Part shown: one piece after another, positions 400 to 14,402 of the stretch
Numbering within the stretch: position 1 is the stretch's first letter
How the letters are laid out: the number at the start of each line of letters is the position of its first letter
Assembly (NCBI GenBank): GCA_024654525.1
Contig: JANLHI010000013.1
Coordinates: 18,036-82,035, forward strand
DNA: 64,000 nucleotides
Direction of reading: 5' to 3'
Source: Patescibacteria group bacterium
Lineage (GTDB): Bacteria; Patescibacteriota; Minisyncoccia; UBA6257; 2-01-FULL-56-20
Program-made: the position numbers and the translations under genes
The notes under the pieces: model-generated
Seen by the model: the letters and a program-made list of their open reading frames with translations, nothing else
Told to the model about the DNA's origin: nothing
Databases searched by the model: none

Positions 400-1479
400 T
401 TATTCCGTTTCTTCCTTCCCTCCCCCCGAGGGCGTTCCTCCGGTTTTTTCGAATAAGAGAACTGCCTGCACGGTTTTTGATTTAATTGCGTTTAGAAGCT
501 TTTTATCTTCTTTGAGCTTAAGACGCACTGTTTCAAAACCCGTACCGAGACGTTCTCCTTCAAATGAATAACTTGCACCTGATTTGGTTGCGGTACCGTA
601 TTTTATTGCGGCGTTCAATACATCTGCTTCGTAAGAAATACCTTCGTTATACATAATATCGAACTCTGCGGTGCGGAAAGGAGGCGCTACTTTATTTTTG
701 ACTACTTTTGCTTTTACGCGACTACCCACCACCATTTCTCCTTTTTTTACCTGCGCAATGCGGCGAATATCGAGACGGACGGACGCCGCAAATTTGAGTG
801 CCATGCCTCCCGGCGTGGTTTCTGGGTTGCCGAACATCACGCCGATTTTCATGCGAAGTTGGTTGATGAAGATAACAAGAGTTTGCGTTTGATTCGCAAT
901 CGCGGTGAGTTTGCGAAGCGCTTGCGCCATCATGCGTGCTTGCCGTCCCACATGTTGCGCTCCCATTTCTCCTTCAAGTTCCGCGCGAGGGGTAAGTGCC
1001 GCAACCGAATCCACCACAATCACCGAGATAATTCCCGATCGCACCAGACTTTCCAGAATGTTAAGCGCTTCTTCGCCGTTATCCGGTTGGGAAATAAGAA
1101 GGTCATTTATTTTTACACCGAGCCGCGCGGCATACTCGGGGTCCATTGCATGTTCCGCATCAATAAAAGCAGTTTTCCCTCCTTGCTTTTGCGCTTGCGC
1201 CACCACGTTCAATGCGAGTGTAGTCTTTCCGCTTGATTCCGGTCCATAAATTTCGACAACGCGTCCACGGGGAAGACCTCCCACGCCAAGTGCGAGATCC
1301 AGAGAAAACGAGCCCGTAGGAATCACCGCGACGTCAACCTTGCGTGTTTCGCCAAGTTTCATAATCGCGCCATCGCCGAATTTATCGCGGAGCGTGGAAA
1401 TGAGGTTCTCGAGCTCGCCATTGCTTTCCTTCTCATTTTTCCCTTTCATTTCCTTCTTCTCTTTTGTTGCAGGTGTCAT
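400..1479 (-). CDS. recA: recombinase RecA
   Basis: Translation carries the Walker A motif GPESSGKTT and the canonical RecA core ([34 protein letters not shown]). Length is 359 aa. Confidence 0.95.
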
Positions 1480-1921: not shown

Positions 1922-2746
1922 ATGGTGAAGAACGTATTTTTTTGGCGAAATATAATTTTTCTTCTTGGTGTCGTGTTTGCGGTGGCGATAGTTTCTACTT
2001 CTTATGGTAAAGGAGGTCTTGTCAATGATCCTCCCTCGGTACATCGAAAACAAGTTGTCCAAAATCCCATGGGAGGCACAAGTACTCCCACGCAAACGCA
2101 GATCAGTAGCGCAAGTTGTCCCGATGGTTCCGTGATGGTGGGATTTAACCTGGAAAATATGGGAAGTAATTTTTCTCAGTTTGGAGATGTGTATTGCCAT
2201 CCTGTAGTGAGTGGCATAACTCTTGGAGAGGTAACCACATGGCGCAAAACCACTGTGGAAAATCCGTGGGGTGGAGATGATTTATCCACTACGCAGTTAA
2301 AGGTTGACGATGCAAGTTGTCCTAGTGGTTCTGTCATAGTGGGTTTTAGTTTGGATAATTTGGGAAGTAATTATTCGCGACAGGCATCGCTTTATTGCCG
2401 TGATGTGAAAGCAGGATCTTCAGAAAAATATTCAAGAACAGTCGCGGAAAATCCATGGGGAGGAACTACGTCGCCGACCAATGAGCAAATAACAAGTGCA
2501 AGTTGTCCTGAAGGATATGCGATTGGCGGTTTTAATCTTATCAACATGGGAAGTAATTACTCAAAGAGTAATGTCCTTTATTGTCGTTCGGTGCCTGGCG
2601 TAATATCGGTAACACCTCCGTCATCCAAAGCGCACACGCCCAAAGTAGATTTTTATATTAGCGCAACAGGAAGCTGTGATAGCAAAGCGAAAACTGCGGA
2701 AATACAAAAAGGCGCCACCGCAAAACTTTGTTGGGATGCAAAATAA
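1922..2746 (+). CDS. secreted/anchored protein with three tandem ~57-aa Cys-pair repeats
   Basis: N-terminal hydrophobic segment. Three repeats of ENPWGG..T....SASCP.GS..GF.L.N.GSN.S......YC are visible in the translation. Confidence 0.6.
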   Translation: MVKNVFFWRNIIFLLGVVFAVAIVSTSYGKGGLVNDPPSVHRKQVVQNPMGGTSTPTQTQISSASCPDGSVMVGFNLENMGSNFSQFGDVYCHPVVSGITLGEVTTWRKTTVENPWGGDDLSTTQLKVDDASCPSGSVIVGFSLDNLGSNYSRQASLYCRDVKAGSSEKYSRTVAENPWGGTTSPTNEQITSASCPEGYAIGGFNLINMGSNYSKSNVLYCRSVPGVISVTPPSSKAHTPKVDFYISATGSCDSKAKTAEIQKGATAKLCWDAK

Positions 2747-2758
2747 AAACGTACACGC

Positions 2759-4543
2759 ATGAGAATAAGCACACACATAAAATTAATCGCATCTCTCGCG
2801 GTGCTTGGTGTGGTGGCGATGATTGTATCTTCTCCTCAAAGCCACGCAGAACAAAATGTGATAATGGATACGCCGGGAAATTATATATGGACGGTTCCCG
2901 AGGGCATCACCAATATAAAAGTAAAAGTGTGGGGTGCGGGGGGAGCCGGAGGAACAGGGTATCAGGGCGATAACAAATATCTTCGCGGTGCCGGCGGTGG
3001 CGGGGGAGGCGGAGGATATGCGGAAGCAACTCTCGAGGTTACCCCCGGCGCAACATATTCCATCATCGTGGGGGAAGGAGGTATTTCGGAAATAGGGAAA
3101 TCAATTCTTATAAAAACAGAAGGAGCAGGCAACAGTGAATTTGGCACGGTGTGGCAGGGACAATCCTATGCGGTAGGTGCGGGTGGTGGCGGCAGTGGAG
3201 CCACGCCGCAGATAGGGACGGTCAATACGGGTTCCTTTCCGGTAAGTGTTCCCGGTCTTGGCTATGGTGGTGTGGCATACGCGCCGGGCGCGGGAAATGG
3301 AGGAAATGCATCGGGCGGAGGAGGCGGAGGATCGGGATATTTTATCGGGTGGGCTCAAGACCAAATTAGTGGTGTTTCAAAAACTGGGGAGCAAGGGAAA
3401 GATGCAATTGCGAGTGCGGCAGGAAAGGGTGGCGACGGCGCAGAAGGTGGCGCAGGGGGCATTGCCGGGAAGGGTGCGGGGGACGCAAGAAATGGAGAGC
3501 TTCCCGGAGGAGGCGGAGGAGGTTCATGGTCGGGTATTACAGACTATAAAAATCAAAAATATGTTCCTGCGGCGAATGGCGCACACGGAAAAGTGGAAAT
3601 TGAGGTACTCTCCGCAGAAGAAGGGATTGCATGTCGTCCCGCAATTGGTTCGGAGTCAGGAGAGTTTCAAGGAAATTTAAATAAAGAAGGGAATGCAACT
3701 ACTGCGCCGCTCAACGCAAGTCAAACATTTACTATTGAGTGTTGGAATACTGCAAATCCCGCAGGAACCAAGGTAACCGAAACGGTAACCGCAACAGTTG
3801 CAATGCCTCCTCCGGAAGAAGTAGTAGCAGTAGTGTCTACCCCTTCAGAAAATCCGTGGGACGGATGGATAAAATTGTCGGGGACGACGAAAGATGGTAA
3901 CTCGTACGGTGTACGGTATGATCCCGAAACCACCCGTTTCTGCGGCTACGCGTGGGGCGGTGAGGTGGTGGGATGGGTGGAATTCGGACCGTTGCCGACA
4001 AGCCAGAGTCCGAAGCAAGAGGAGGGATGTGATCGCACGCCGGTGAAATATGATTGGGTGAGGCTGGGGAATACGATGCCAGTAATGAAACCAGTGGTGA
4101 ATGGAAAGCAGGATCCGCCATATATGATTGATGTTGATAAACAAAAGTTACCTTTCGACATTCAGCCCTATGACGGCCTCCGCACGAGCGAAGCTCCCTA
4201 CCAACTTACCGGCTGGGCATGGTCATCAAATATAGGGTGGATTAGTTTTTCGAATGAAAATCACGCGGGAAGCGTGAACTATGGTGTAAGTATGGAGGTG
4301 AAGGGACCTGATGTTGATAAAGCGTCAGGGCGCGCGCTCACCGGCTGGGCGTGGAGTCCGAACATAGGGTGGGTGAAGTTTGACGAGTCACTAAAAGTGA
4401 GAAGCGAAAGCTATCCAGAAGCTCCTGAAAATGGAGGAGTTCTTAATATCAAAAAAAGTATTCTTGAAGGATGGGCACGTGTGTGCTCGGCAACTGTGAA
4501 TGGAGATTGCGCAAATACTACTGGAGAGTATAGAGGAAATTAA
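2759..4543 (+). CDS. secreted glycine-rich domain protein with C-terminal GWAW repeats
   Basis: Signal peptide. Motif TVPEGITNIKVKVWGAGGAGG...GGGGGGGGY, typical of glycine-rich-domain proteins. Three C-terminal repeats (L/F)(T/C)G(W/Y)AWS.NIGW..F. Confidence 0.7.
   Translation: MRISTHIKLIASLAVLGVVAMIVSSPQSHAEQNVIMDTPGNYIWTVPEGITNIKVKVWGAGGAGGTGYQGDNKYLRGAGGGGGGGGYAEATLEVTPGATYSIIVGEGGISEIGKSILIKTEGAGNSEFGTVWQGQSYAVGAGGGGSGATPQIGTVNTGSFPVSVPGLGYGGVAYAPGAGNGGNASGGGGGGSGYFIGWAQDQISGVSKTGEQGKDAIASAAGKGGDGAEGGAGGIAGKGAGDARNGELPGGGGGGSWSGITDYKNQKYVPAANGAHGKVEIEVLSAEEGIACRPAIGSESGEFQGNLNKEGNATTAPLNASQTFTIECWNTANPAGTKVTETVTATVAMPPPEEVVAVVSTPSENPWDGWIKLSGTTKDGNSYGVRYDPETTRFCGYAWGGEVVGWVEFGPLPTSQSPKQEEGCDRTPVKYDWVRLGNTMPVMKPVVNGKQDPPYMIDVDKQKLPFDIQPYDGLRTSEAPYQLTGWAWSSNIGWISFSNENHAGSVNYGVSMEVKGPDVDKASGRALTGWAWSPNIGWVKFDESLKVRSESYPEAPENGGVLNIKKSILEGWARVCSATVNGDCANTTGEYRGN
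3917..4041 (+). repeat. copy A of a duplicated ~125-nt segment (inside the Gly-rich protein gene)
   Basis: About 85% identical to 6534-6658 by manual alignment. Encodes RYDPETTRFCGYAWGGEVVGWVEFGPLPTSQSPKQEEGCDRTP. Confidence 0.7.
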
Positions 4544-4564
4544 AATAGTATTGACTAGAAATTT

Positions 4565-4600
4565 AAAGACCCTTGCATGAAGCTTGGGTCTTTATTTGTT
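4565..4600. terminator. bidirectional terminator between convergent genes
   Basis: AAAGACCC-ttgcatgaagctt-GGGTCTTT hairpin with T-rich flanks on both strands. Confidence 0.55.
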
Positions 4601-4633
4601 GGGTTGCGTGAAAAATTTGAAACAGATGCAACC

Positions 4634-5761
4634 TTATCTGTTATATCTTGTTCGGAAGAAACTGAGAGGTTTGAGAGCACCATGTACTCCGAGAGTGCCA
4701 CTCTCAACATTAGCATTTGGTCCGAGTGGGACTGACTGCCAGTGTATGAGGTCTTGCGATTGCTCGAATACGACCTCATCTCCTGCTTCTCCTGAAACAA
4801 AGATCTCCGCTGCTGGGTTTTTTCCGTCCCACAGCTGCGGTGTCCATCGGATGGCGGTGATAAGCGGCTCCCTCTCCTCTTGCTCTCCCATGAGCCGTGT
4901 TCCCGTGCGCGCGTCGTACCGTGCTATGATGCCAGTTAAGTTCACGTCATCCCAAAACTCAAGAGTGAGAATCCCGAGGGATTGTTCAAAGATGGGTTTT
5001 GCGGGAAGAGCGAGTACTCCCGCGCCGCTGACGAACACACTGTAAGGCGAGCCTTCAAACTCTGATTTTTTTCCGACGTTGGCCAGCCTAACATTTCGGT
5101 AAGAATAGCCAGGGTTGGAGTCAATGAACTCCGTTCCAGTCCACCATCGAAGGCGAGCGCGTTGGAGTCCGGGGTAACGTACGAATACGCTATTTACGAA
5201 CCCCAGCGAAATATCGCCGAGTACCCATGCTGGAGGAGACCACGTGCCGTCGGTGCCTTGTATAAGTTTGAAGGAGTCCACATTATACCGGAACGCCTGG
5301 TATCCCGTGATCTCGTTTCCCCAATTCACACCGAACCCATAGTCGGCTTTGGGATGCGCCGCGAAGAAAGAGGGTAAGGCAAGGAAGACAGAAAGAATTC
5401 CTTGTTTTACTTCTTCTCCTCTGAAATGAGCGGCGATGAGTTTTCTGGGGAATTCAATCGCTTCCGATTCGCTCCAGTCGCTATCAGCGTTGATCTCAAC
5501 TTCAAACGATAAGTCACGTCCGAACATCCCGACAAGGTCGTATGATATTCCATCTATATCGGTACAACCAAACCCCCACCCCACACTCTTTACCAGCTTC
5601 GCCCCCTCCTTACGAAAGAAAGATTTCCCCTCTTTTCCTACCTTCAGGATTTCGGGAATTTTGGGTTTTTCGAATGTGATTGGTGTGCCGGACGCGAAAG
5701 CCCCGACCAGCGCGTAGGCGAAGAAAAGAATGGCGGTGAATCCGCCAGTCAGAGTTTTCAT
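4634..5761 (-). CDS. secreted protein (hypothetical)
   Basis: 375-aa ORF with an N-terminal signal peptide (MKTLTGGFTAILFFAYALVGAFASG). No motif I can name. Confidence 0.55.
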   Translation of the reverse strand: MKTLTGGFTAILFFAYALVGAFASGTPITFEKPKIPEILKVGKEGKSFFRKEGAKLVKSVGWGFGCTDIDGISYDLVGMFGRDLSFEVEINADSDWSESEAIEFPRKLIAAHFRGEEVKQGILSVFLALPSFFAAHPKADYGFGVNWGNEITGYQAFRYNVDSFKLIQGTDGTWSPPAWVLGDISLGFVNSVFVRYPGLQRARLRWWTGTEFIDSNPGYSYRNVRLANVGKKSEFEGSPYSVFVSGAGVLALPAKPIFEQSLGILTLEFWDDVNLTGIIARYDARTGTRLMGEQEEREPLITAIRWTPQLWDGKNPAAEIFVSGEAGDEVVFEQSQDLIHWQSVPLGPNANVESGTLGVHGALKPLSFFRTRYNR

Positions 5762-6020
5762 TGTAAAATCCTTTCGAATCTATCATTGCAGTCCTTTGCA
5801 GGCACAAGTTTTTTGCCCTTTCATCCGAGAGAACACTTATGCCAATTTACATTGAACTAACCCCAGTATAGCACATAAAATAGGAAAAAGTCAATCCATG
5901 ATTAGACATTGCGGCGTATGGGTTGGAGAGGCGGAAGTACACAGATTGTGCACAGTATAGTCATTAGGACTCAGAGGACGATGATTGATGTTTCGGGCGT
6001 TCCTGTGGTAGGATGTGAAC

Positions 6021-6227
6021 ATGGCAACCGTTACGATCCCGAAACAAATAACTAAGGGCGAAGAGTTGGTGGTGCTTACCCGAAAAGAGTATGAGAAGTT
6101 TCTTGATGCGACAGTTCGAGAAAAAGAGGTCAGTGCCGCCGACATGTTGCGATGGTCACGGGAAGCGAAACAACTAAAGAAGCAAGGCAAGCTGCCGGTT
6201 CTCCGTTCCCTTAAGGATTTGCGGTGA
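6021..6227 (+). CDS. putative antitoxin of a type II TA pair
   Basis: 68-70 aa ORF immediately upstream of a RelE/ParE-like toxin gene, coupled to it by an overlapping stop/RBS. AGGA lies 7 nt upstream of the ATG. Confidence 0.5.
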   Translation: MATVTIPKQITKGEELVVLTRKEYEKFLDATVREKEVSAADMLRWSREAKQLKKQGKLPVLRSLKDLR

Positions 6228-6233
6228 GTGAAT

Positions 6234-6488
6234 ATGAAAATCTACTATCACCCACGGTTTGCGAAATCATATCGTAAGTTGCCGTCGCTTTTGCGCGCGA
6301 AAGCAGAAGCGCGAGAAGCGATATTCAGGAAGAATTCCTTTGACCCGCGACTTGATACGCACAAACTCCACGGCAAACTCAAGCGTCAGTGGAGTTTTTC
6401 TATTGGTTGGAAATATCGCATCCTCTTCGAGTTTGTGGATGATGGTGTTATTTTCCTTGATGTTGATGATCACGAAATTTATGCATAG
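6234..6488 (+). CDS. RelE/ParE-family toxin (YafQ/RelE-like)
   Basis: 84-aa translation with the RelE/ParE pattern HPRF.K.YRKL....AIF..N.FDPRL..HKL.G.....SF.I...YRILFEF.DDGVIFLDV.DH.IY. Confidence 0.7.
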   Translation: MKIYYHPRFAKSYRKLPSLLRAKAEAREAIFRKNSFDPRLDTHKLHGKLKRQWSFSIGWKYRILFEFVDDGVIFLDVDDHEIYA

Positions 6489-6533
6489 TGACAGGAAATG
6501 TAAGGGGACATCCGCCTTCGGCGGGACGCAGTC

Positions 6534-6635
6534 CGCTACGACCCCGAAACCACGCGTTTCTGCAGCTATGCATGGGGTGGTGAAATAGTAGGATGGATTA
6601 AATTCGGACCATTGCCGACAAGTCAGAGTCCCAAA
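6534..6635 (+). pseudogene. degenerate paralogous fragment of the Gly-rich protein C-terminal repeat
   Basis: Encodes RYDPETTRFCSYAWGGEIVGWIKFGPLPTSQSPK followed by a stop. No start codon and stops upstream in frame. About 85% DNA identity to 3917-4041. Confidence 0.6.
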
Positions 6636-6805
6636 TAAGAGGAGGGATGCGACCGAACGCCTTCCAAATAAAGTTCCGTCGCCTCCTTAATGTTTTCAGC
6701 AAGCTTATCAAATGTTTTCGCTTGCGTAACAATGGGGACATCGACCCCCTGCGCGATGTAGTGAATATCTCCTTTTGAGATGGAAAATTGAAGAATGTGT
6801 TTCAT
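6623..6805 (-). CDS. HicB-like (UPF0150) antitoxin-domain protein, probably C-terminally truncated or replaced
   Basis: HicB N-domain pattern (KGD.HYIAQGVDVPIVTQAKTFD.L.ENIKEATELYLEG). The last 13 codons are encoded by the reverse strand of the duplicated fragment. No hicA partner is present. Confidence 0.45.
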   Translation of the reverse strand: MKHILQFSISKGDIHYIAQGVDVPIVTQAKTFDKLAENIKEATELYLEGVRSHPSSYLGL

Positions 6806-6912
6806 GGTACTTTGATTATATTACAGTTATAACATCTGTATATATCAAAGCTTGTCCAGCTTTTGTTTCAATTTCGATGCTGGAGCAACATGGGCAATGA
6901 GAACCACCGCAT

Positions 6913-7365
6913 TTACCCGCGTATCTTTTTCGCGAGTTCGGCAAGGCGGGAATCGTCCGCGCGGGCGCCATCGTGCGATGAAATATATCCCTCGTATTGC
7001 TCAAAATATTTATTAGAGATGTTGGATTTGATGGGTTTCCAGTCCTTCATTTTTGTGCCGTGCATCGGGAAGAGTTTTGCATGAAGATGATCTACGGCAA
7101 ATCCTTCGAAGATGAGTCCTGTTCTGCCGACGTCGTCAAGCTTCGCATCAAGGAGTTTTGCCACTTTTTTCGCGGCAAGAATAAGCGATGTGAGTACGTC
7201 ATCGGGAACGTCAAAGGCATAGCTCGGATAGTGAGTTTTTGGAATTACCACAGAAAACCCCTCGGTGTTTGGAAAAATAGTGAGGAATGCAAGGTGTGTA
7301 GCATCTTCCCAAATTGTGTGCGATGGTAATTTTTTAGAAACGATATCGCAAAAGAGGCAGGACAT
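6913..7365 (-). CDS. HIT-family (histidine triad) nucleotide hydrolase
   Basis: N-terminal CLFCDI and the histidine-triad motif VDHLHAKLFP in the translation. Confidence 0.8.
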   Translation of the reverse strand: MSCLFCDIVSKKLPSHTIWEDATHLAFLTIFPNTEGFSVVIPKTHYPSYAFDVPDDVLTSLILAAKKVAKLLDAKLDDVGRTGLIFEGFAVDHLHAKLFPMHGTKMKDWKPIKSNISNKYFEQYEGYISSHDGARADDSRLAELAKKIRG

Positions 7366-7451
7366 AGTAAATATAAGAATAGTATACGTGTAGAGACAAC
7401 GGGGGACAACTCCCCCTTTTTGAGGGAAAGAATGTGATATAATTACTACAA

Positions 7452-8003
7452 ATGAGAAGGAATTTTATGAATAGATTTGATATTTCCAAAAAAATAAAAT
7501 TAAGTAAGCATGTTCGGTGGATTGGAGGTGGAATACTTATGGCGTGTGCCGTAGTGGTATTCGCAGTGATGAATTTTCAATATGAGGCGCAAGCGCAGAG
7601 TGCGATTGCAAATAGCGGAAGGCAAGTGAGATATCCGTTTGGGACTTCGAAAGTAACCCTCAATTGGGCGACATGGGGGAGCGGTGAGTTCGCTCGCGCA
7701 TTCCGAAAGTGCAGGGTAACCGTGAATGCTACGGATTCAAAAAACAAAGGAGGAGTTGCCACGTCAACATTATGCAATACCGATCCAGAGGGGTTTCCGG
7801 TGTCGGTGACTAATGGAGCTGAATACAAAGCAACAATCAATGTAGAATCAATAATCCCGGGAGCGGTCAGTGTGGGGGGCGCACCGCTTGTCACGAATGA
7901 TAATATTGCCTTTATTATTGATGATAAGCCCGAGGGTGCGACGTCAACGCCCGCGTTACCAAAGCCACCGGAACGTCCCGCGCCGAACTATAGAGAGCTT
8001 TAG
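7452..8003 (+). CDS. secreted or membrane-anchored hypothetical protein
   Basis: 183-aa ORF with an N-terminal TM/signal segment. Confidence 0.45.
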   Translation: MRRNFMNRFDISKKIKLSKHVRWIGGGILMACAVVVFAVMNFQYEAQAQSAIANSGRQVRYPFGTSKVTLNWATWGSGEFARAFRKCRVTVNATDSKNKGGVATSTLCNTDPEGFPVSVTNGAEYKATINVESIIPGAVSVGGAPLVTNDNIAFIIDDKPEGATSTPALPKPPERPAPNYREL

Positions 8004-8044
8004 AAAGTTGAAGGATAGAAAAATAGAATATAATAAAAATATCA

Positions 8045-8311
8045 ATGGAGAACGAGACGCAGAACAATGTAATCAAGCAGAACACATGGGTGATTATTGG
8101 TGTTGCAGTATTCATTGTAATCGTGGCAGGGGTGAGTCTCCGTTCATTTTTTAATCGTCCGCAAGAAGAAACAATACCGGGTCTTACCGCGGGACAAGTG
8201 GCAACACTCAACGCGCTTGCGGCTCGGGCGGAAGCGAAAAAAGTTCACGCAGGAAAATTGCCGACATTGACACAATCGCAATCGCAAACGCTTAACGATC
8301 TTTCAAATTAA
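8045..8311 (+). CDS. small membrane protein (hypothetical)
   Basis: 88-aa ORF with a single TM helix. Confidence 0.4.
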   Translation: MENETQNNVIKQNTWVIIGVAVFIVIVAGVSLRSFFNRPQEETIPGLTAGQVATLNALAARAEAKKVHAGKLPTLTQSQSQTLNDLSN

Positions 8312-8314
8312 TTA

Positions 8315-8905
8315 ATGAAAAAAGAAAAAAACAATATTGCATTTCTTGTGGTAGCGGTGGTCGCGCTTTTTGCGGGGTGGAATACATCGTCTCTTTTTGC
8401 ATGGGATAAGCCGACATTGCCACCAACAAGCGGAAATACTTCCGCACCTATTCACGAGGGATCGTTGGTGCAAGCCAAGTCGGGGAAGTTGATTGTAGGA
8501 GGTCTTGGAATTCATTCGTGGCAATTTATTCCTTCGAGCGATTGCCTTTCTCTTGGTGGTGCGCAAGCGTGGTCGCGAACGGGTGTATCTGTCGGATCGG
8601 GAACATGCCCCGCGGCGGGTACCGCATTTTCCGTTGAAGGAGGCCTCCTTATTGAAGGAGGAGATATGGGGGATGTACTTACCAACGTCGGCGATGGCGT
8701 GGTGCAGTGGAAAAAGTTTGTTGCACCGATTGTGAAAATCATCGCAGGTTCGAACACGCGCATCACTCCCGAAGCGGGTACCGGGGATGTGACAATAAAT
8801 GCCATTATGCCCTCAATGCCTTCGGTTCCAAGCTGGGTTACTAATCGTTCGGGGGGGGTTCCTCATGCAGACGCACAAGGGAATGTATCATGGGGATCAT
8901 TATAA
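8315..8905 (+). CDS. secreted protein, short paralog of the next gene
   Basis: N-terminal hydrophobic anchor. Shares the GDVLTN.GDGV..W.K.VAP and PS.P.VP.WV.....GV...D..GNVSW blocks with 8929-9888. Confidence 0.55.
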   Translation: MKKEKNNIAFLVVAVVALFAGWNTSSLFAWDKPTLPPTSGNTSAPIHEGSLVQAKSGKLIVGGLGIHSWQFIPSSDCLSLGGAQAWSRTGVSVGSGTCPAAGTAFSVEGGLLIEGGDMGDVLTNVGDGVVQWKKFVAPIVKIIAGSNTRITPEAGTGDVTINAIMPSMPSVPSWVTNRSGGVPHADAQGNVSWGSL

Positions 8906-8928
8906 AAAATGATATACTATAACTATTC

Positions 8929-9888
8929 ATGAGTATTAAAAAAATATCCTCATTTGTTGCCGTGGGAATCGTGGCGTTTATGATAGGTTCCGGTGCGCGA
9001 TATCTTTCGGCGCAAACGTTTAATGCGCCCACGCAAACTCCTCCTTCGGAAAATGTTCCCGCGCCGATTAATGTGGGGAGTATTACGCAAACAAAAATAG
9101 GAGGGCTCAATCTCGAAGGCAATTTTGCTATTAAAGCGGGGTCAAGCGAGGAATGGGCTTTTGATGTGCAAAGAGGAAGTTTACGGCTTGGGTCTGCGCA
9201 AGCGTGGGGTCCCGACGGTACGGTGATGATTGGCAGTGTGCCGGAAAATTGGAGCAATCCGAGCGGTGTTGTGTTGAATATCAATGGAGGAGTTCGTATT
9301 CAAGGAGGAAACAGCGGTGATGTGCTTACCAACAAAGGAGGTGGCGTGGCAAGTTGGGAAAAGCCGGTGGCGCCTGTAACCAGTATTCTTGCAGGATCAT
9401 ATATCACAGTGACTCCTTCAGCGGGAGGAGTGGTGACGGTGAGTGCGATTCAACCCTCGGCGCCCGATGTTCCCGGATGGGTAAATCCCGGTTCGGGAAG
9501 TTCTAATCGTGTGCCGGTAGCGGATTCAAACGGAAATGTGTCGTGGCGCGTAGTACGCGCAGTGGTAAGCGGCGGAGGAAGTTCTTCTATAGATGTAAAT
9601 TCCGCATATGAATCAATCCGACAGCCCAGTGATCCCCTTCTTCATGAAAATGGAATAGACCGAGCAGTGTATCACGATTCTTCGACACTCAACCGAATAT
9701 GTGTGCAGAAAGGATATGAGCGTTATGTGGGCGGAGGAACTTTCAAAATATGGACAAGCCCGGAAGATAACGGAGTAGTGGCGTGGGGCGGTTCTCAATG
9801 GGTAAAATATGATGGGGATAATAAGGAACATGTAGAAGGAGCTATCACGTGTGAAACAACAGGAAGCGCGCGTCTTATTCTGGAGTAG
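8929..9888 (+). CDS. secreted protein, long paralog (possible fibre/adhesin-like)
   Basis: Paralogous to 8315-8905 with an extra ~120-aa C-terminal domain. Signal anchor present. Confidence 0.6.
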   Translation: MSIKKISSFVAVGIVAFMIGSGARYLSAQTFNAPTQTPPSENVPAPINVGSITQTKIGGLNLEGNFAIKAGSSEEWAFDVQRGSLRLGSAQAWGPDGTVMIGSVPENWSNPSGVVLNINGGVRIQGGNSGDVLTNKGGGVASWEKPVAPVTSILAGSYITVTPSAGGVVTVSAIQPSAPDVPGWVNPGSGSSNRVPVADSNGNVSWRVVRAVVSGGGSSSIDVNSAYESIRQPSDPLLHENGIDRAVYHDSSTLNRICVQKGYERYVGGGTFKIWTSPEDNGVVAWGGSQWVKYDGDNKEHVEGAITCETTGSARLILE

Positions 9889-9917
9889 ATAGTTTTTCTG
9901 AATATCGTAGGTATATC

Positions 9918-9948
9918 AAAAAAAACACCGGATCCCGGTGTTTTTTTG
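9918..9948. terminator. bidirectional rho-independent terminator
   Basis: ACACCGG-atc-CCGGTGT hairpin flanked by an A-run and TTTTTTT. Confidence 0.6.
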
Positions 9949-9961
9949 ATGAGTATAAATT

Positions 9962-10624
9962 TTACTGAGCGGTACTAGTAGTAATAACGATTGCCGGAGT
10001 GTAGAGCACTTGGCGGGTTACATTTGCAGTGCTTCCTAAGAAGCGTGTCCCCGTCACTTCGATAGTATTGAGTCCTTCGTGGAGCATGACGCGTTTTTCC
10101 CAATCACCTTGGTCATTCACAGGCACGGATTCGCCATTTACGGTTGCTTTCTCTCCGTACGAGAGAGAACCGCGAACCGTAATTTCCTCCGTCTCGGCGG
10201 GAGTAATGCCGCGCGGAGGATATTCCACGATGAGAAGCGGTGTACCGAAGATTGCGACAAAACGTACGCCAAGATAAATAAGTAACACCACTCCCACTCC
10301 GGCAATCCACATGGGAGCTGACGATTTTTCCTTAAACCTGTTTATGGGGAGGGCATCTGAAGATCCGGACGCCCTTACCACTCCTTCCGCTTTTAATTCG
10401 CGCCACCATGCTTCTCCGTCGAAATCAAGTACGGTACCGAGTTTATGAAGATACCCATGCACATATGGGGAAGGTGGGAGCGCCTCAAAATTCCCCGCAA
10501 TAAGGTGCTCAAGGTGGGCAATTGAAATGTTCGACATTTGAGAAAGCTTCTCAACAGTCCAGTTTTTATCGCGGACTCGTTCATGGAGAAAAGTTCCAAA
10601 TTGCTGAGGGGAAGTTTCGGTCAT
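9962..10624 (-). CDS. HTH-domain membrane protein (RodZ-like architecture)
   Basis: N-terminal XRE-type HTH (TVEKLSQMSNISIAHLEHL), one TM helix, then an extracytoplasmic domain. Confidence 0.5.
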   Translation of the reverse strand: MTETSPQQFGTFLHERVRDKNWTVEKLSQMSNISIAHLEHLIAGNFEALPPSPYVHGYLHKLGTVLDFDGEAWWRELKAEGVVRASGSSDALPINRFKEKSSAPMWIAGVGVVLLIYLGVRFVAIFGTPLLIVEYPPRGITPAETEEITVRGSLSYGEKATVNGESVPVNDQGDWEKRVMLHEGLNTIEVTGTRFLGSTANVTRQVLYTPAIVITTSTAQ

Positions 10625-10707
10625 AGTACTTATAACTTATAACGTCTTATCAATAACCGCAATCTACGCGGTAAGAGGGTATGCACGAGAATTAAGAATT
10701 ATTCCTT

Positions 10708-12849
10708 TTACGCGGGAGATTCGTTGCCCTGTTCAAACTTCTCGAAATATACATCGCGAGGTTTTGCGCCATCGCCGGGACCGATAAGTCCCCGTTCTTC
10801 CATAATATCAAGAAGACGTGCGGCGCGCGCATAGCCGACTTTCAATCGCCGTTGGAGAAGAGAGGCGGATGCCCGTTTTGCCTCAAATACCACGGTAGAT
10901 GCTTCGTCGAGAAGTTCGTCGTCATCATCATTCGCGAAATCTTCAAAATTCACCTCATTATTGGGAATGCCTCCGGGAGGAAGATTGTTATTGGAAAGAG
11001 GCATCTCTTCGCTCGGCAACGGTTCGTTATTATCACGGATAAAATCCGCGACCGCATTAATTTCCGCTTCCGAGATGTAGGATCCTTGAATACGTTTCGG
11101 TTTAGAAATGTCGGAGCTAATCATAAGAAGATCTCCGCCGCCGAGAAGTTTTTCTGCACCCGCCGTGTCAAGAATTGTCCGTGAGTCTATTTGGCTTGCG
11201 ACTTGGAGTGCGATACGGCAAGTAATGTTTGCTTTGATAAGTCCGGTAATGACTTCCACAGAGGGGCGTTGTGTGGAGAGTACCAAGTGAATACCGGTTG
11301 CACGCGCCATTTGTGCAAGGCGGACGATTGATCCTTCAACTTCGCGGCCATATGAGGTCATAAGATCGGCGAGCTCATCGACAACGATGACAAGATACGA
11401 AAGCGAATCTTCTTTGTGGGTGGAATTGTAGCTTTTAATATCCCTACACCCGGCTTTAAGGAGAATATCGTAGCGTCGATCCATTTCCGCAATCGCCCAG
11501 CGGAAAACCCCAATGGCCTTCTTGTTTTCCGTGATAACCGGAGAGATAAGGTGGGGGATGTGTTCATAGATGGAAAGTTCTACGCGTTTTGGGTCAATAA
11601 GAATGAGTTTCAACGTTGAAGGTGAATTTTTATACAAGAGAGAAATAATAAGTGAGTGGATTGTTACCGATTTCCCGGAGCCGGTGGAACCCGCAATAAG
11701 TACATGAGGCATTTTTTCTATATTGGTGAATATGGGTTCTCCTGTTACGTCGCGGCCAATAGCAAATGAAAGCAATCCTGCCGATTGAAATTCGGGATAT
11801 GTCATAAGGCTTCCTAATCGAACAAGTGCGGCTGTTTTGTTTGGAACCTCAATCCCTACGAGCGACTTTCCGGGGATTGGTGCTTCTATACGGATGGGAT
11901 GCGCGGCAAGCGAAAGCGCCAAATCTTGGTGCAGCGCGGTAATGCGCGAGAGCTTCATTCCTTCCGCGGGTTTTAATGTATAGCGGGTTACTTTGGGACC
12001 GATGTTAATTTCCCCCATTTCAACCGAGATGCCGAATGATTCAAGAGTGCGCTTGATAATGTTCGCATTTGCGCGAAGGTCTCCCGTGGTGGGTTTTTCA
12101 ATGCCGGAGAGAAGGAGAGAGAGGGGAGGAGGAGTGTAATTGCTGGGCATTGAAATCTTTGCGGTATGCGCTTTACCTGTTGGCGCTTTCATAGAGTGAG
12201 GTTCTGCAATGACAACATCCTCATCCTCTTCCTCTTTTTCGGATGGCTCTGCGGGAATCACCTGTTTTTTTCTGGGAGCTACTTCTTTTTCCTCTCCACC
12301 ATCATCAGGGAATTCTATTTCTGCTTTTGATGTATACGATTGATCTTTGTTGTGCGCAAAGAGTTTTTGGAGACGGGAAAAATTAAGGGGTATATTGGCG
12401 GCAACAAGGATTCCTACCACAAGAAATACCGTATTGAGAATAAGTGCGGCGGTGTCGCCAAAGGGGATTCTCAATGAGCCGAACACCAGTCCCACCCACC
12501 CTCCTTTTCCGGGAAGTATTATTTCGATAAGACCGAGAAGAGAAAGTAGGACAAGCGCACCCCCGAGAGAAGTAGTGGCAACGATCCTTTTTCCTTCGGA
12601 GAAGAGCAATACTCCCGATGCGAACAAAAGCGTCGCGGGAAGCACTATATATCCTGCGCCGAGAAATGTTTCAAATACCTTGTAAAGCAATACTCCCGCA
12701 GGGCCCGATTTTCCGAACTGAGCAAGGACGAGTATCGCGGCGATGCCTATGAATATGATGGCAAGAATACTTTTTTTGGTAGCATCGTGCAGACGTGATT
12801 GGAGAGATTGTTCCTCTCCATTTCGTTTTTTCGTTTTATCTCTCGACAT
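10708..12849 (-). CDS. ftsK: DNA translocase FtsK/SpoIIIE
   Basis: N-terminal TM helices, Walker A GSTGSGKSV, and a C-terminal gamma winged-helix (LLQRRLKVGYARAARLLDIMEERGLI). The ORF is open back to 12978. The start was chosen at MSRDK to avoid a divergent overlap with the next gene. Confidence 0.85.
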   Translation of the reverse strand: MSRDKTKKRNGEEQSLQSRLHDATKKSILAIIFIGIAAILVLAQFGKSGPAGVLLYKVFETFLGAGYIVLPATLLFASGVLLFSEGKRIVATTSLGGALVLLSLLGLIEIILPGKGGWVGLVFGSLRIPFGDTAALILNTVFLVVGILVAANIPLNFSRLQKLFAHNKDQSYTSKAEIEFPDDGGEEKEVAPRKKQVIPAEPSEKEEEDEDVVIAEPHSMKAPTGKAHTAKISMPSNYTPPPLSLLLSGIEKPTTGDLRANANIIKRTLESFGISVEMGEINIGPKVTRYTLKPAEGMKLSRITALHQDLALSLAAHPIRIEAPIPGKSLVGIEVPNKTAALVRLGSLMTYPEFQSAGLLSFAIGRDVTGEPIFTNIEKMPHVLIAGSTGSGKSVTIHSLIISLLYKNSPSTLKLILIDPKRVELSIYEHIPHLISPVITENKKAIGVFRWAIAEMDRRYDILLKAGCRDIKSYNSTHKEDSLSYLVIVVDELADLMTSYGREVEGSIVRLAQMARATGIHLVLSTQRPSVEVITGLIKANITCRIALQVASQIDSRTILDTAGAEKLLGGGDLLMISSDISKPKRIQGSYISEAEINAVADFIRDNNEPLPSEEMPLSNNNLPPGGIPNNEVNFEDFANDDDDELLDEASTVVFEAKRASASLLQRRLKVGYARAARLLDIMEERGLIGPGDGAKPRDVYFEKFEQGNESPA

Positions 12850-12962: not shown

Positions 12963-14402
12963 ATGAATATAAATCCAAGAATTTTCAGAGGATATGACCT
13001 TAGGGGTCTTGTAGGGAAAGACTTGAGCCCCGAAGTTGCAGAGCATCTTGGGAGAGCATACGGGACATATATGAAGCGTCATGGAATTACACGGCTTGTG
13101 GTGGGGCGAGACTCGCGAGCGACGGGTCCTACCTACAGCGCGGCGCTTATTCAAGGACTTTTATGGACGGGCGCTGAGGTGGTTGATATTGGAATGACGC
13201 TTGTGGGGACATTTTATTGGTCTCAATACCATCTTACCTGCAAAGGAGGAGTATTTGTTTCGGCGTCTCATAATCCTCCCGAATACAACGGGTTTAAATT
13301 TGCAAATGATTTTTCCGAAACGCTTGTGAGTGATGGGATGCAGGAGTTAAGGAGAATGGTACAAGAAGAAGATTATGAAGAAGGGCCGGTGCATGGGAGT
13401 GTTGCCGTGCAAGATATACGCGAAGAATATTATCGCGATCTTCTTTCTCGTATAATGATAGGAAAAAAACTTCGAGTGGTAGTGGATGCGAGCTGTTCTA
13501 CTGCGGGGGCATTTGCGCCGGATCTTTTAAGGCGTGCGGGATGCGAGGTGATTGAGAAGAATTGCGAAGTTGACCCGTCGTTTCCTTTGGGGGTTGCCGA
13601 TCCTACGTCGTCGATAATTGCGACGCGTGTCCGCGGGGAGGTGCTTGAGGCGCATGCGGATATAGGATTTACCTATGATGCCGATGGGGACCGTATCGGT
13701 ATCGTGGATGAAAAAGGGGATATCATTTGGAATGATGTACTCACTGCAATATTTGCTACGGACGTATTACACAATCATCCGGGAGCGACAATTATGTACA
13801 ACATCCTTTGTTCCAAGACCGTCGAAGAAACCATTGTGCGGCACAGAGGAATTCCCTTCATGTGGCGCGTAGGACATTCGTTCCTCAAGAAAAAAAATCA
13901 GGAAATTGGGGCGGCGTTTATTGGTGAGCTTTCCGGGCATTTCTTTTTCTCGAAAGATTTTTACAATCATGATGACGGATTATATGCGACACTGCGACTC
14001 TTGAGTTACTTGGCGCGTACGCAACAAACATTATCGCAGGCGGTTGCCGTCTTGCCGCACTATGCTTCAAGTCCAGAAATCAAAGTGTATTGCGCAGATG
14101 AAAATAAGGAAGCATTGATAAAAAAAATAAGCCCGATACTTCGCACGGCGTATCCTGATGCGCAAGTGATTGATGATGAGCGTGCGGGTGATGGGGTGCG
14201 TCTTAATCTTCCCGATGCGATGTTTGTGGTGCGCTATTCACAGAACGGACCATACCTCACCATTAAATTTGAAGGGAAGACGAACGAAAGATATCACGAG
14301 CTCGCAAAATTTATTCACGATCTTCTGAAGAAATTTCCGGAAATAGATTGGAATTCATCTATCAACTTGAATGTGGAAGCACTCAAAGAGGAAGGCGAAT
14401 GA
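12963..14402 (+). CDS. phosphohexomutase (phosphomannomutase/phosphoglucomutase family)
   Basis: N-terminal IFRGYDLRG, active-site SASHNP and the overall alpha-D-phosphohexomutase layout. Confidence 0.85.
   Translation: MNINPRIFRGYDLRGLVGKDLSPEVAEHLGRAYGTYMKRHGITRLVVGRDSRATGPTYSAALIQGLLWTGAEVVDIGMTLVGTFYWSQYHLTCKGGVFVSASHNPPEYNGFKFANDFSETLVSDGMQELRRMVQEEDYEEGPVHGSVAVQDIREEYYRDLLSRIMIGKKLRVVVDASCSTAGAFAPDLLRRAGCEVIEKNCEVDPSFPLGVADPTSSIIATRVRGEVLEAHADIGFTYDADGDRIGIVDEKGDIIWNDVLTAIFATDVLHNHPGATIMYNILCSKTVEETIVRHRGIPFMWRVGHSFLKKKNQEIGAAFIGELSGHFFFSKDFYNHDDGLYATLRLLSYLARTQQTLSQAVAVLPHYASSPEIKVYCADENKEALIKKISPILRTAYPDAQVIDDERAGDGVRLNLPDAMFVVRYSQNGPYLTIKFEGKTNERYHELAKFIHDLLKKFPEIDWNSSINLNVEALKEEGE

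Follow-up and report, generated by a model that had tools for sequence, protein, structure and literature searches.

Orphan cdiA-CT/cdiI and rhs-CT modules, of contact-dependent growth inhibition (CDI) and Rhs systems, are startless, 5'-truncated gene copies that lie downstream of a full gene, retain conserved upstream sequence of varying length, vary in their C-terminal part, stand beside a cognate neighbor gene, and have insertion sequence (IS) elements among them (PMC7662968). Chromosomal type II toxin–antitoxin (TA) modules can hinder the loss of neighboring DNA, e.g., in superintegron cassette arrays (PMC5543033). Here we compare with these systems, and with the pseudogene relics of tandem paralogue arrays, a locus next to recA in a metagenome-assembled Patescibacteria genome (locus tags NUV53_*), analyzed within a window of 64,000 nt from a 121-kb contig. 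In this window, 131 nt from the gene of a Gly-rich secreted surface protein (copy A) are repeated 2.6 kb away (copy B), between a RelE/ParE-type TA pair and a shortened HicB-like gene. We propose that copy B is probably the last remnant of a second, headless copy of the C-terminal domain (CTD) of the surface protein, cut by the same deletion that shortened the HicB-like gene, and hence a product of ordinary genome decay.

Each of these systems matches the locus in part. As in pseudogene relics of tandem paralogue arrays, B is startless, carries one nonsense codon, ends at an edge with a few bases of microhomology, and has a neighbor truncated by the same event; unlike ordinary relics, it is almost free of neutral decay, and fragments directly behind toxin genes recur in other genomes. 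The traits listed above for orphan CDI/Rhs modules are also found among this locus and its relatives, yet there is no toxin domain and no boundary of the VENN or PxxxxDPxGL type, the accompanying gene (hereafter the partner) encodes a secreted protein of 320–375 amino acids (aa) and is convergent, TA operons stand between the units, and the copy in the window is too short to serve as a module. Finally, as expected for a stabilizing TA module, the RelE/ParE-type pair of the window sits between direct repeats whose recombination would delete it, but the toxin family differs from genome to genome and a deletion beside the pair probably did occur.

The features that carry the argument are the following.
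3911–4041, plus strand: copy A of the repeat, codons 385–428 of the main surface-protein gene, made of the first CTD repeat unit and a lineage-specific linker, PLPTSQSPKQEEGCDRTP
6531–6661, plus strand: copy B, the probable relic of a second, 5'-truncated CTD copy, 131 nt, startless, with one nonsense codon at 6636–6638
6658–6661, no strand: putative deletion junction, 3–4 nt, CGCC on the plus and GGCG on the minus strand, common to both homology ends
6623–6805, minus strand: truncated HicB-fold gene, 60 aa, NCBI NUV53_00865, of which residues 1–49 (6659–6805) are native

Comparison of the window with itself (blastn) aligned A with B at 81.7% identity over 131 nt (E-value ~6e-32, offset +2620), and no third copy was found within the 64 kb. 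A repeat search placed wider limits at 3906–4050 and 6526–6670 (79% identity), and tblastn placed the CTD similarity of B at 6528–6668. An earlier reading made from the sequence alone (hereafter the sequence-only reading) had noticed the same repeat, which is real, although 3917–4041 pairs with 6537–6661 and not with 6534–6658, one codon off, at 82% rather than ~85% identity. Translated in the frame of the Gly-rich gene, B reads VRYDPETTRFCSYAWGGEIVGWIKFGPLPTSQSPK*EEGCDRTP; its stop at 6636 arises by a single change, CAA>TAA, and the similarity to A runs 8 codons beyond it. No usable start codon lies between the upstream stop at 6500–6502 and the B peptide, in line with the earlier description of B as a startless gene fragment. 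Two further observations of that reading held as well: the antisense strand of B provides the end of the HicB-like open reading frame (ORF), namely its last 11 codons (VRSHPSSYLGL) and stop, and a shadow ORF of copy A (3946–4161, minus strand) contains GVRSHPSSCFGL, i.e., the same end peptide.

Next, we examined how A and B have diverged. Of their 24 differences, 19 affect the third codon position and 5 the first, with the second unchanged throughout (chi-square p 5e-6), and by the Nei–Gojobori method the proportion of synonymous differences (pS) is 0.655 against a non-synonymous proportion (pN) of 0.05. Synonymous sites are thus nearly as saturated between A and B as between genomes (pS 0.70–0.79), and beyond the nonsense codon of B the changes are synonymous only. 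All 5 replacement differences are GC>AT in B; judged by comparison with other genomes, at least 3 of them are B-derived, and the nonsense change must be B-derived too. The third positions of the plus frame and of the minus-strand HicB-like frame fall on the same bases, but since the HicB-like ORF spans only 39 nt of B, it cannot explain the pattern. Together, these values argue that B evolved for a long time under coding constraint with little decay since, and that it is not a recent copy that decayed. They speak against the recent duplication and subsequent decay proposed in the sequence-only reading, and indicate instead that B encoded protein during most of its past and ceased to do so only recently.

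The second line of evidence comes from the HicB-like gene. A word-indexed homologue search with its ORF returned 2 proteins only, and the family became visible in a full HMMER scan. The sole close homologue, P0002 (85 aa), is 75% identical to window residues 1–49 and continues with ...GEDLSELGIAPSPSLLVNFELPAAYA past the switch point at which the window protein reads VRSHPSSYLGL, the stretch opposite this peptide being EDLSELGIAPSPSLLVNFELPAAYA. P0002 has 470 relatives, typically of 72–77 aa, in which the C-terminal part is conserved (E.EDL..G....PS.L.N.EL). In an AlphaFold2 model of P0002 built with the family alignment (pLDDT 88.5; a single-sequence model reached only pLDDT 44), the order of elements is β1-β2-β3-α1, a short helix, and β4 at residues 68–78. 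Window residues 1–49 cover β1–β3 and α1; residues 50–60 and the stop come from the strand antisense to B, and the short helix and β4 are lost. Because a C-terminal strand conserved across this ~75-aa family is missing, the HicB-like gene is truncated, as the sequence-only reading had suspected. A search for relatives with the same short HicB-like C-terminus found none.

The name of the gene deserves a qualification. The top Foldseek match of the P0002 model was TTHA1013 (1wv8; TM-score 0.78, probability 1.0, E-value 0.01), which we take to have a HicB-type fold (β-β-β-α-β, partially RNase H-like), and the family profile reached TTHA1756 (2yzt) at an E-value of 4e-8 and HicB chains only weakly. 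Models of HicB families remained below cut-off (P0002 against HicB_lk_antitox, 12.5 bits, cut-off 27; window ORF against DUF1902, 13.4 bits, cut-off 22), and only 7 of 42 family members reached an E-value < 0.01 against the Pfam HicB models. The full-length homologue thus resembles TTHA1013 and TTHA1756 in fold, but there is no DNA-binding domain and no adjacent HicA: the hicA gene considered in the sequence-only reading did not appear as a HicA-like ORF around 6450–7100 of the window or beside P0002, whose neighbors are a T2SSE ATPase gene and a response-regulator gene. The window ORF thus encodes a HicB-fold single-domain protein without its last strand, for which the label “antitoxin” is not justified. 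As side observations, no Pfam model captures the 75-aa family (470 members) at cut-off, and one protein of 2009 aa (P0127) has 20 separate stretches that match the family and appears to be built from tandem copies of the domain.

Both truncations meet at one point. The hicB-like homology, followed from the right, ends at 6658/6659 (tblastn limits 6659–6802), while the A/B similarity, followed from the left, extends to 6661, and no filler bases separate the two; at this point the homologue DNA reads GAT GGC GAG and copy A reads ACGCC/GGTG. With a 3–4 nt overlap and no filler, one microhomology-mediated deletion would account at once for where B stops on the right and for the shortened HicB-like gene. 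Such a deletion would have begun at codon 44 of the second CTD copy and reached codon 49/50 of the hicB-like gene, which lies on the opposite strand.

The left edge of B can be understood from related loci, for which the remaining features of the window segment are needed.
2759–4543, plus strand: main Gly-rich secreted surface-protein gene, 594 aa, Pfam Gly_rich_2 (E-value 5e-13)
4634–5761, minus strand: convergent partner gene, 375 aa, with a signal peptide, identical to NCBI NUV53_00850
5864–5955, no strand: conserved intergenic element E
6021–6227, plus strand: antitoxin candidate, 68–70 aa, N-terminus MATVTIPK...
6234–6488, plus strand: RelE/ParE-superfamily toxin, 84–86 aa, Pfam ParE_toxin 24.1 bits (cut-off 23)
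6913–7365, minus strand: HIT-family gene, upstream of the hicB-like gene on the same strand, in the segment without counterpart in locus L007
7452–8003, plus strand: orf183

The main gene encodes an N-terminal signal or transmembrane segment, the Gly-rich domain, a linker, and, from ~3857, the CTD, which consists of WDGW.../GWAWSxNIGW repeats and aligns with the relatives. No Pfam family covers the CTD, a repeat domain that is common among Patescibacteria proteins; the C-terminal half of the Gly-rich protein has 239 homologues, the best of them only 46–48% identical. The partner likewise has no Pfam family. It follows a CTD-bearing gene in every related locus; L043 alone has a further gene, of 277 aa, between the two.

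Three related loci were laid out as follows.
L006 (Ca. Liptonbacteria): main gene with CTD 5900–8050; partner 8129–9160, minus strand; E; antitoxin and ParE; CTD copy 10001–10582
L006, 12864–13010: second short relic, directly after a PIN toxin gene, reading ...WDGWLKLSG...YGVKYDPKTTRFC[hairpin insert]GYAWGGD, followed by a partial E
L005: main gene 5884–7911; partner 8007–9077, minus strand; E; antitoxin and PemK; CTD copy 10001–10981; second partner 11100–12062, minus strand
L007 (closest relative, RecA 91%): main gene 8375–10636; partner 10713–11771, minus strand; E; then the orf183 homologue directly

L005 and L006 share the layout of the window, i.e., a main gene with CTD, a convergent partner, E, a TA pair, and a 5'-truncated second CTD copy. 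In L006, where recA is syntenic and 88% identical in protein, this copy (193 codons) begins MHN/FCGYAWGG and represents the remainder of the CTD. Over 413 nt its DNA is 90% identical to that of the main CTD, and the differences are distributed 5/3/34 by codon position. Behind it lies what is left of a second partner, a C-terminal stub interrupted by an IS256-type transposase. The second L006 relic is of the same kind as B. Between its RFC and GYAWGG it carries a 33-nt GC-rich insert that looks palindromic by eye. The 326-codon copy of L005 begins with the last half of a CARDB domain (E-value 0.0025), and since this start matches a full-length 1058-aa gene in L043, the L005 second copy is a 5'-truncated paralogue. 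A CTD copy directly behind a toxin gene is therefore the normal state in relatives, so that B sets this genome apart by its right edge alone. Consequently, while truncation of the HicB-like gene stood up through P0002 and its 470-protein family, truncation by insertion of the fragment, as the sequence-only reading had it, did not.

L007 provides the complementary case. Between its partner and its orf183 homologue there is no TA pair, second CTD copy, hicB-like gene, or HIT gene, and its CTD remainder and partner, kept in the absence of a TA pair, are therefore resident genes and not insertion cargo. Relative to this nearest known genome, the window segment ~5960–7451 (TA pair, relic, hicB-like gene, and HIT gene) is an indel. 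Together with the different toxins that L005 and L006 carry at this position, and with the transposase of L006, this supports the rearrangement hotspot proposed earlier.

From what can be observed directly (the repeat, its codon-position pattern, the HicB-like truncation, the layout in relatives, and the absence of the segment from L007), we propose the following course. The locus downstream of recA in this group of Patescibacteria consists of one or more units, each with a gene carrying a 3' CTD, a convergent partner, and E, with a type II TA operon between units and the CTD copy behind the TA operon always 5'-truncated. In the lineage of the window, where this second CTD copy would once have been long too, it would have been kept in coding condition for most of its history. 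A deletion, with breakpoints sharing 3–4 nt (GGCG), would then have removed the rest of this copy, together with a second partner, if there was one, and with the 3' end of the downstream HicB-fold gene on the opposite strand. The outcome would be the 131-nt startless fragment, whose antisense strand gives 11 foreign codons and a stop to the shortened HicB-like ORF. Most probably, neither B nor this shortened ORF is functional.

Several observations weigh against this proposal. Each genome has its own left edge of the truncated copy (VRYDP in the window, FCGYAWGG in L006, inside CARDB in L005), and the toxins differ as well (RelE/ParE-like in the window, ParE and PIN in L006, PemK in L005), which leaves no single inherited junction and obliges us to assume turnover or independent events. 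The truncated copies of L005 and L006 are free of stop codons over their whole length, which a plain pseudogene model does not predict. In its first 87 nt, B is about equally close to A (80%) and to L005 (77%), its tie to A resting only on the lineage-specific linker ...TSQSPKQEEGCDRTP; B could thus come from an unsampled sister lineage. The microhomology was read from a homologue only 75% identical and not from the true ancestor, and no genome with the pre-deletion state of the exact window locus was found. In addition, the family is rare, the alignment searches with the partner gene yielding 3 homologues in 5.8 billion proteins and 4 metagenome loci.

Given these points, other origins of B must be weighed. 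On the model of the sequence-only reading, a copy of 125–131 nt would have been pasted recently into the hicB-like 3' end, e.g., during break repair, and would have decayed since. This would suit a short, startless piece with a nonsense codon that ends exactly where the hicB-like homology stops, but pS and pN as observed, with no change at position 2, are incompatible with recent neutral decay, and the long CTD copies directly behind the toxin gene of relatives show that the left edge of B is not genome-specific; we consider this origin quite unlikely. An integrative element that brought its own gene 3' part and displaced the original end, with A and B as attachment-site repeats, would resemble prophages e14 and 21, which displace the gene end of icd in E. 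coli. It would account for direct repeats flanking 2.6 kb that include the TA pair, and for mostly synonymous divergence as between two coding alleles. However, no integrase or recombinase lies between or beside the repeats, the L005 second copy retains part of a different middle domain (CARDB) and its own partner, and L007 has the CTD remainder and partner without the TA pair and B, the opposite of the predicted empty site, so that we hold this origin to be very improbable. Diversity-generating retroelements (DGRs) are known in this phylum, and a ~130-nt repeat pair ~82% identical with one member inside a surface-protein gene could recall template and variable repeats. Here, the mismatch spectrum refutes that reading, which we give practically no credence: adenines of B account for only 11 of the 24 mismatch sites and adenines of A for 1, most changes are synonymous, and the reverse transcriptase motif pair is absent from ORFs ≥200 aa. 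A chimeric join is a general concern for a contig of a metagenome-assembled genome, yet it is hardly credible here. A and B share no exact word longer than 13 nt, which is much shorter than the k-mers of assemblers, so that the repeat is too diverged for an assembly artefact; moreover, the same layout occurs in two independent assemblies of other genomes, and GC is flat.

The remaining alternative would make B a silent donor cassette, in which the 5' part of the CTD is a homology arm for swapping the CTD tail together with the partner, while TA pairs hinder loss of the array; TA modules were reportedly found by Szekeres et al. in 2007 to hinder DNA loss in superintegron cassette arrays. The two L005 units (7100–9100 and 10206–12132) indeed combine near-identical arms with a strongly diverged center: the CTD 5' part is 80–100% identical, with at least 72 consecutive identical bases from the CTD start, and the partner 5' half is 92–100% identical, whereas the center (CTD tail and the 3', i.e., C-terminal, half of the partner) reaches only 40–55%. 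In L043 (162–5666), the gene body is that of L005 unit 2, and it is combined with a tail and partner of the unit 1 type. The L005 arms and the L043 mosaic suggest, at the level of sequence, that tail and partner are exchanged as a block. The stop-free truncated copies (326 codons in L005, 193 in L006) would fit as well, and orphan modules are also startless, with upstream conserved sequence of varying length, beside a cognate gene (PMC7662968). On the other hand, B in the window is only 131 nt long, carries a nonsense codon, and lacks both a tail and a second partner, so that it could donate nothing; a toxin domain could not be recognized; the partner is large, secreted, and on the opposite strand rather than a small same-strand immunity gene; the array is found in three genomes only; and ordinary gene conversion among tandem paralogues could equally give the mosaicism. 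A donor role is therefore unlikely in our view. In its broader form, the recA-side locus would be a modular array whose 5'-truncated CTD copies and co-varying partners are exchangeable C-terminal cassettes, with the B of the window a burnt-out cassette; recombination would then take place within the conserved WDGW...FCGYAWGG stretch and within E together with the 5' end of the partner, the TA operons being fixed at every unit boundary. We regard this form as a doubtful but not negligible possibility. Deletion of a once-coding second CTD copy remains the explanation we favor, and with it the sequence-only reading is partly supported: right on the fragment, the HicB truncation, and the hotspot, and wrong on age and mechanism.

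The TA pair between the repeats is, judging by sequence, a real type II TA candidate of the RelE/ParE superfamily, as the sequence-only reading had noted beside the fragment. The toxin match to ParE_toxin is marginal but above cut-off, while HigB-like (25.4 bits, cut-off 27) and NCBIfam RelE_StbE (19.2, cut-off 27.9) remained below theirs. On the same strand, the antitoxin ORF abuts the toxin, ending 0–6 nt before its start (6228 or 6234). It has no Pfam or NCBIfam match; its L006 counterpart has a weak phd_fam match (E-value 0.022), and the N-terminus MATVTIPK... is common to the antitoxins that precede PemK in L005 and ParE in L006.

Element E is a ~90-nt non-coding element (TTGCGGCATAAGGGTTTGAGGGGCGGGAGTCCACAGATTGTGCACAG) between the start of the partner gene and the next plus-strand gene. 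Besides 5864–5955 in the window, copies lie at 9205–9293 in L005, at 9372–9455, 12079–12170, and 13042–13066 (partial) in L006, and at ~11880–11975 (degraded) in L007, where E without a TA pair shows that it does not depend on the TA cassette. The window copy is 72–81% identical to those of L005 and L006, which reach up to 86% between each other, far above flanking genes. Its left half holds a putative sigma-70-like promoter (TTGACT-18-TATACT), which lies on the minus strand at 5894 to 5865 and would serve the partner, and its right half a palindrome, CACAGATTGTGCACAG. Neither an Rfam match nor a convincing conserved RNA structure was found for E (−4.9 kcal/mol, one compensatory pair). A short frame, (K)G(L/W)RGGS(P/T/A)QIVH(R/S), is open in the 4 well-conserved copies.

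Across the wider region, GC content is flat and thus gives no sign of foreign origin, and an Rfam scan of 5700–6900 returned no match. The truncated HicB-like ORF has a good promoter-like site on the minus strand (TATACA-16-TATAAT, 6842–6815). If transcribed, the 3' part of its mRNA (6623–6661) would be antisense to codons 385–428 of the Gly-rich mRNA, the two being 82% complementary and matching without interruption over 13 nt at most. The hairpin CCGCC-TTC-GGCGG at 6511–6523 has no T-run and was not called a terminator.

Two genes precede the main gene in the window.
400–1479, minus strand: recA
1922–2746, plus strand: secreted repeat protein ORF

The ORF at 1922–2746 contains three internal repeats of ~190–200 nt, 72–80% identical in DNA, with the core ASCP.GS...GF.L.N.GSN, and its C-terminal end, PKV.FYISATG.CD.KAK, is conserved in L006 and L043. 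In L005, no full recA was found within the 12 kb of sequence; a 36-codon ORF just upstream of the main surface-protein gene (5689–5799, minus strand) matches the first 40 RecA residues at 60% identity and looks like a recA remnant at the syntenic position. The L043 contig, like that of a further locus, L044, ends just upstream of the partner gene.

For the annotation of this genome, the matter is settled: B is the relic of a gene, and NUV53_00865, rather than a genuine 60-aa HicB-like protein, is a truncated fusion ORF. Beyond this genome, rearrangement has repeatedly affected the recA-side surface-protein locus of these small-genome bacteria, and headless copies of one domain recur directly behind TA operons of different families in a few Patescibacteria; a literature search on TA and surface-protein arrays in Patescibacteria found nothing pertinent. 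If truncated copies exchange with the expressed gene, they would offer a route to surface variation in an uncultivated phylum, and the mosaicism observed between copies consists of one long tract shared within L005, the 90% identity in L006, and the mosaic gene of L043. Should the broader cassette array prove true, the locus would represent an orphan-module system without a recognizable toxin, in a phylum whose cell-surface biology is largely unknown.

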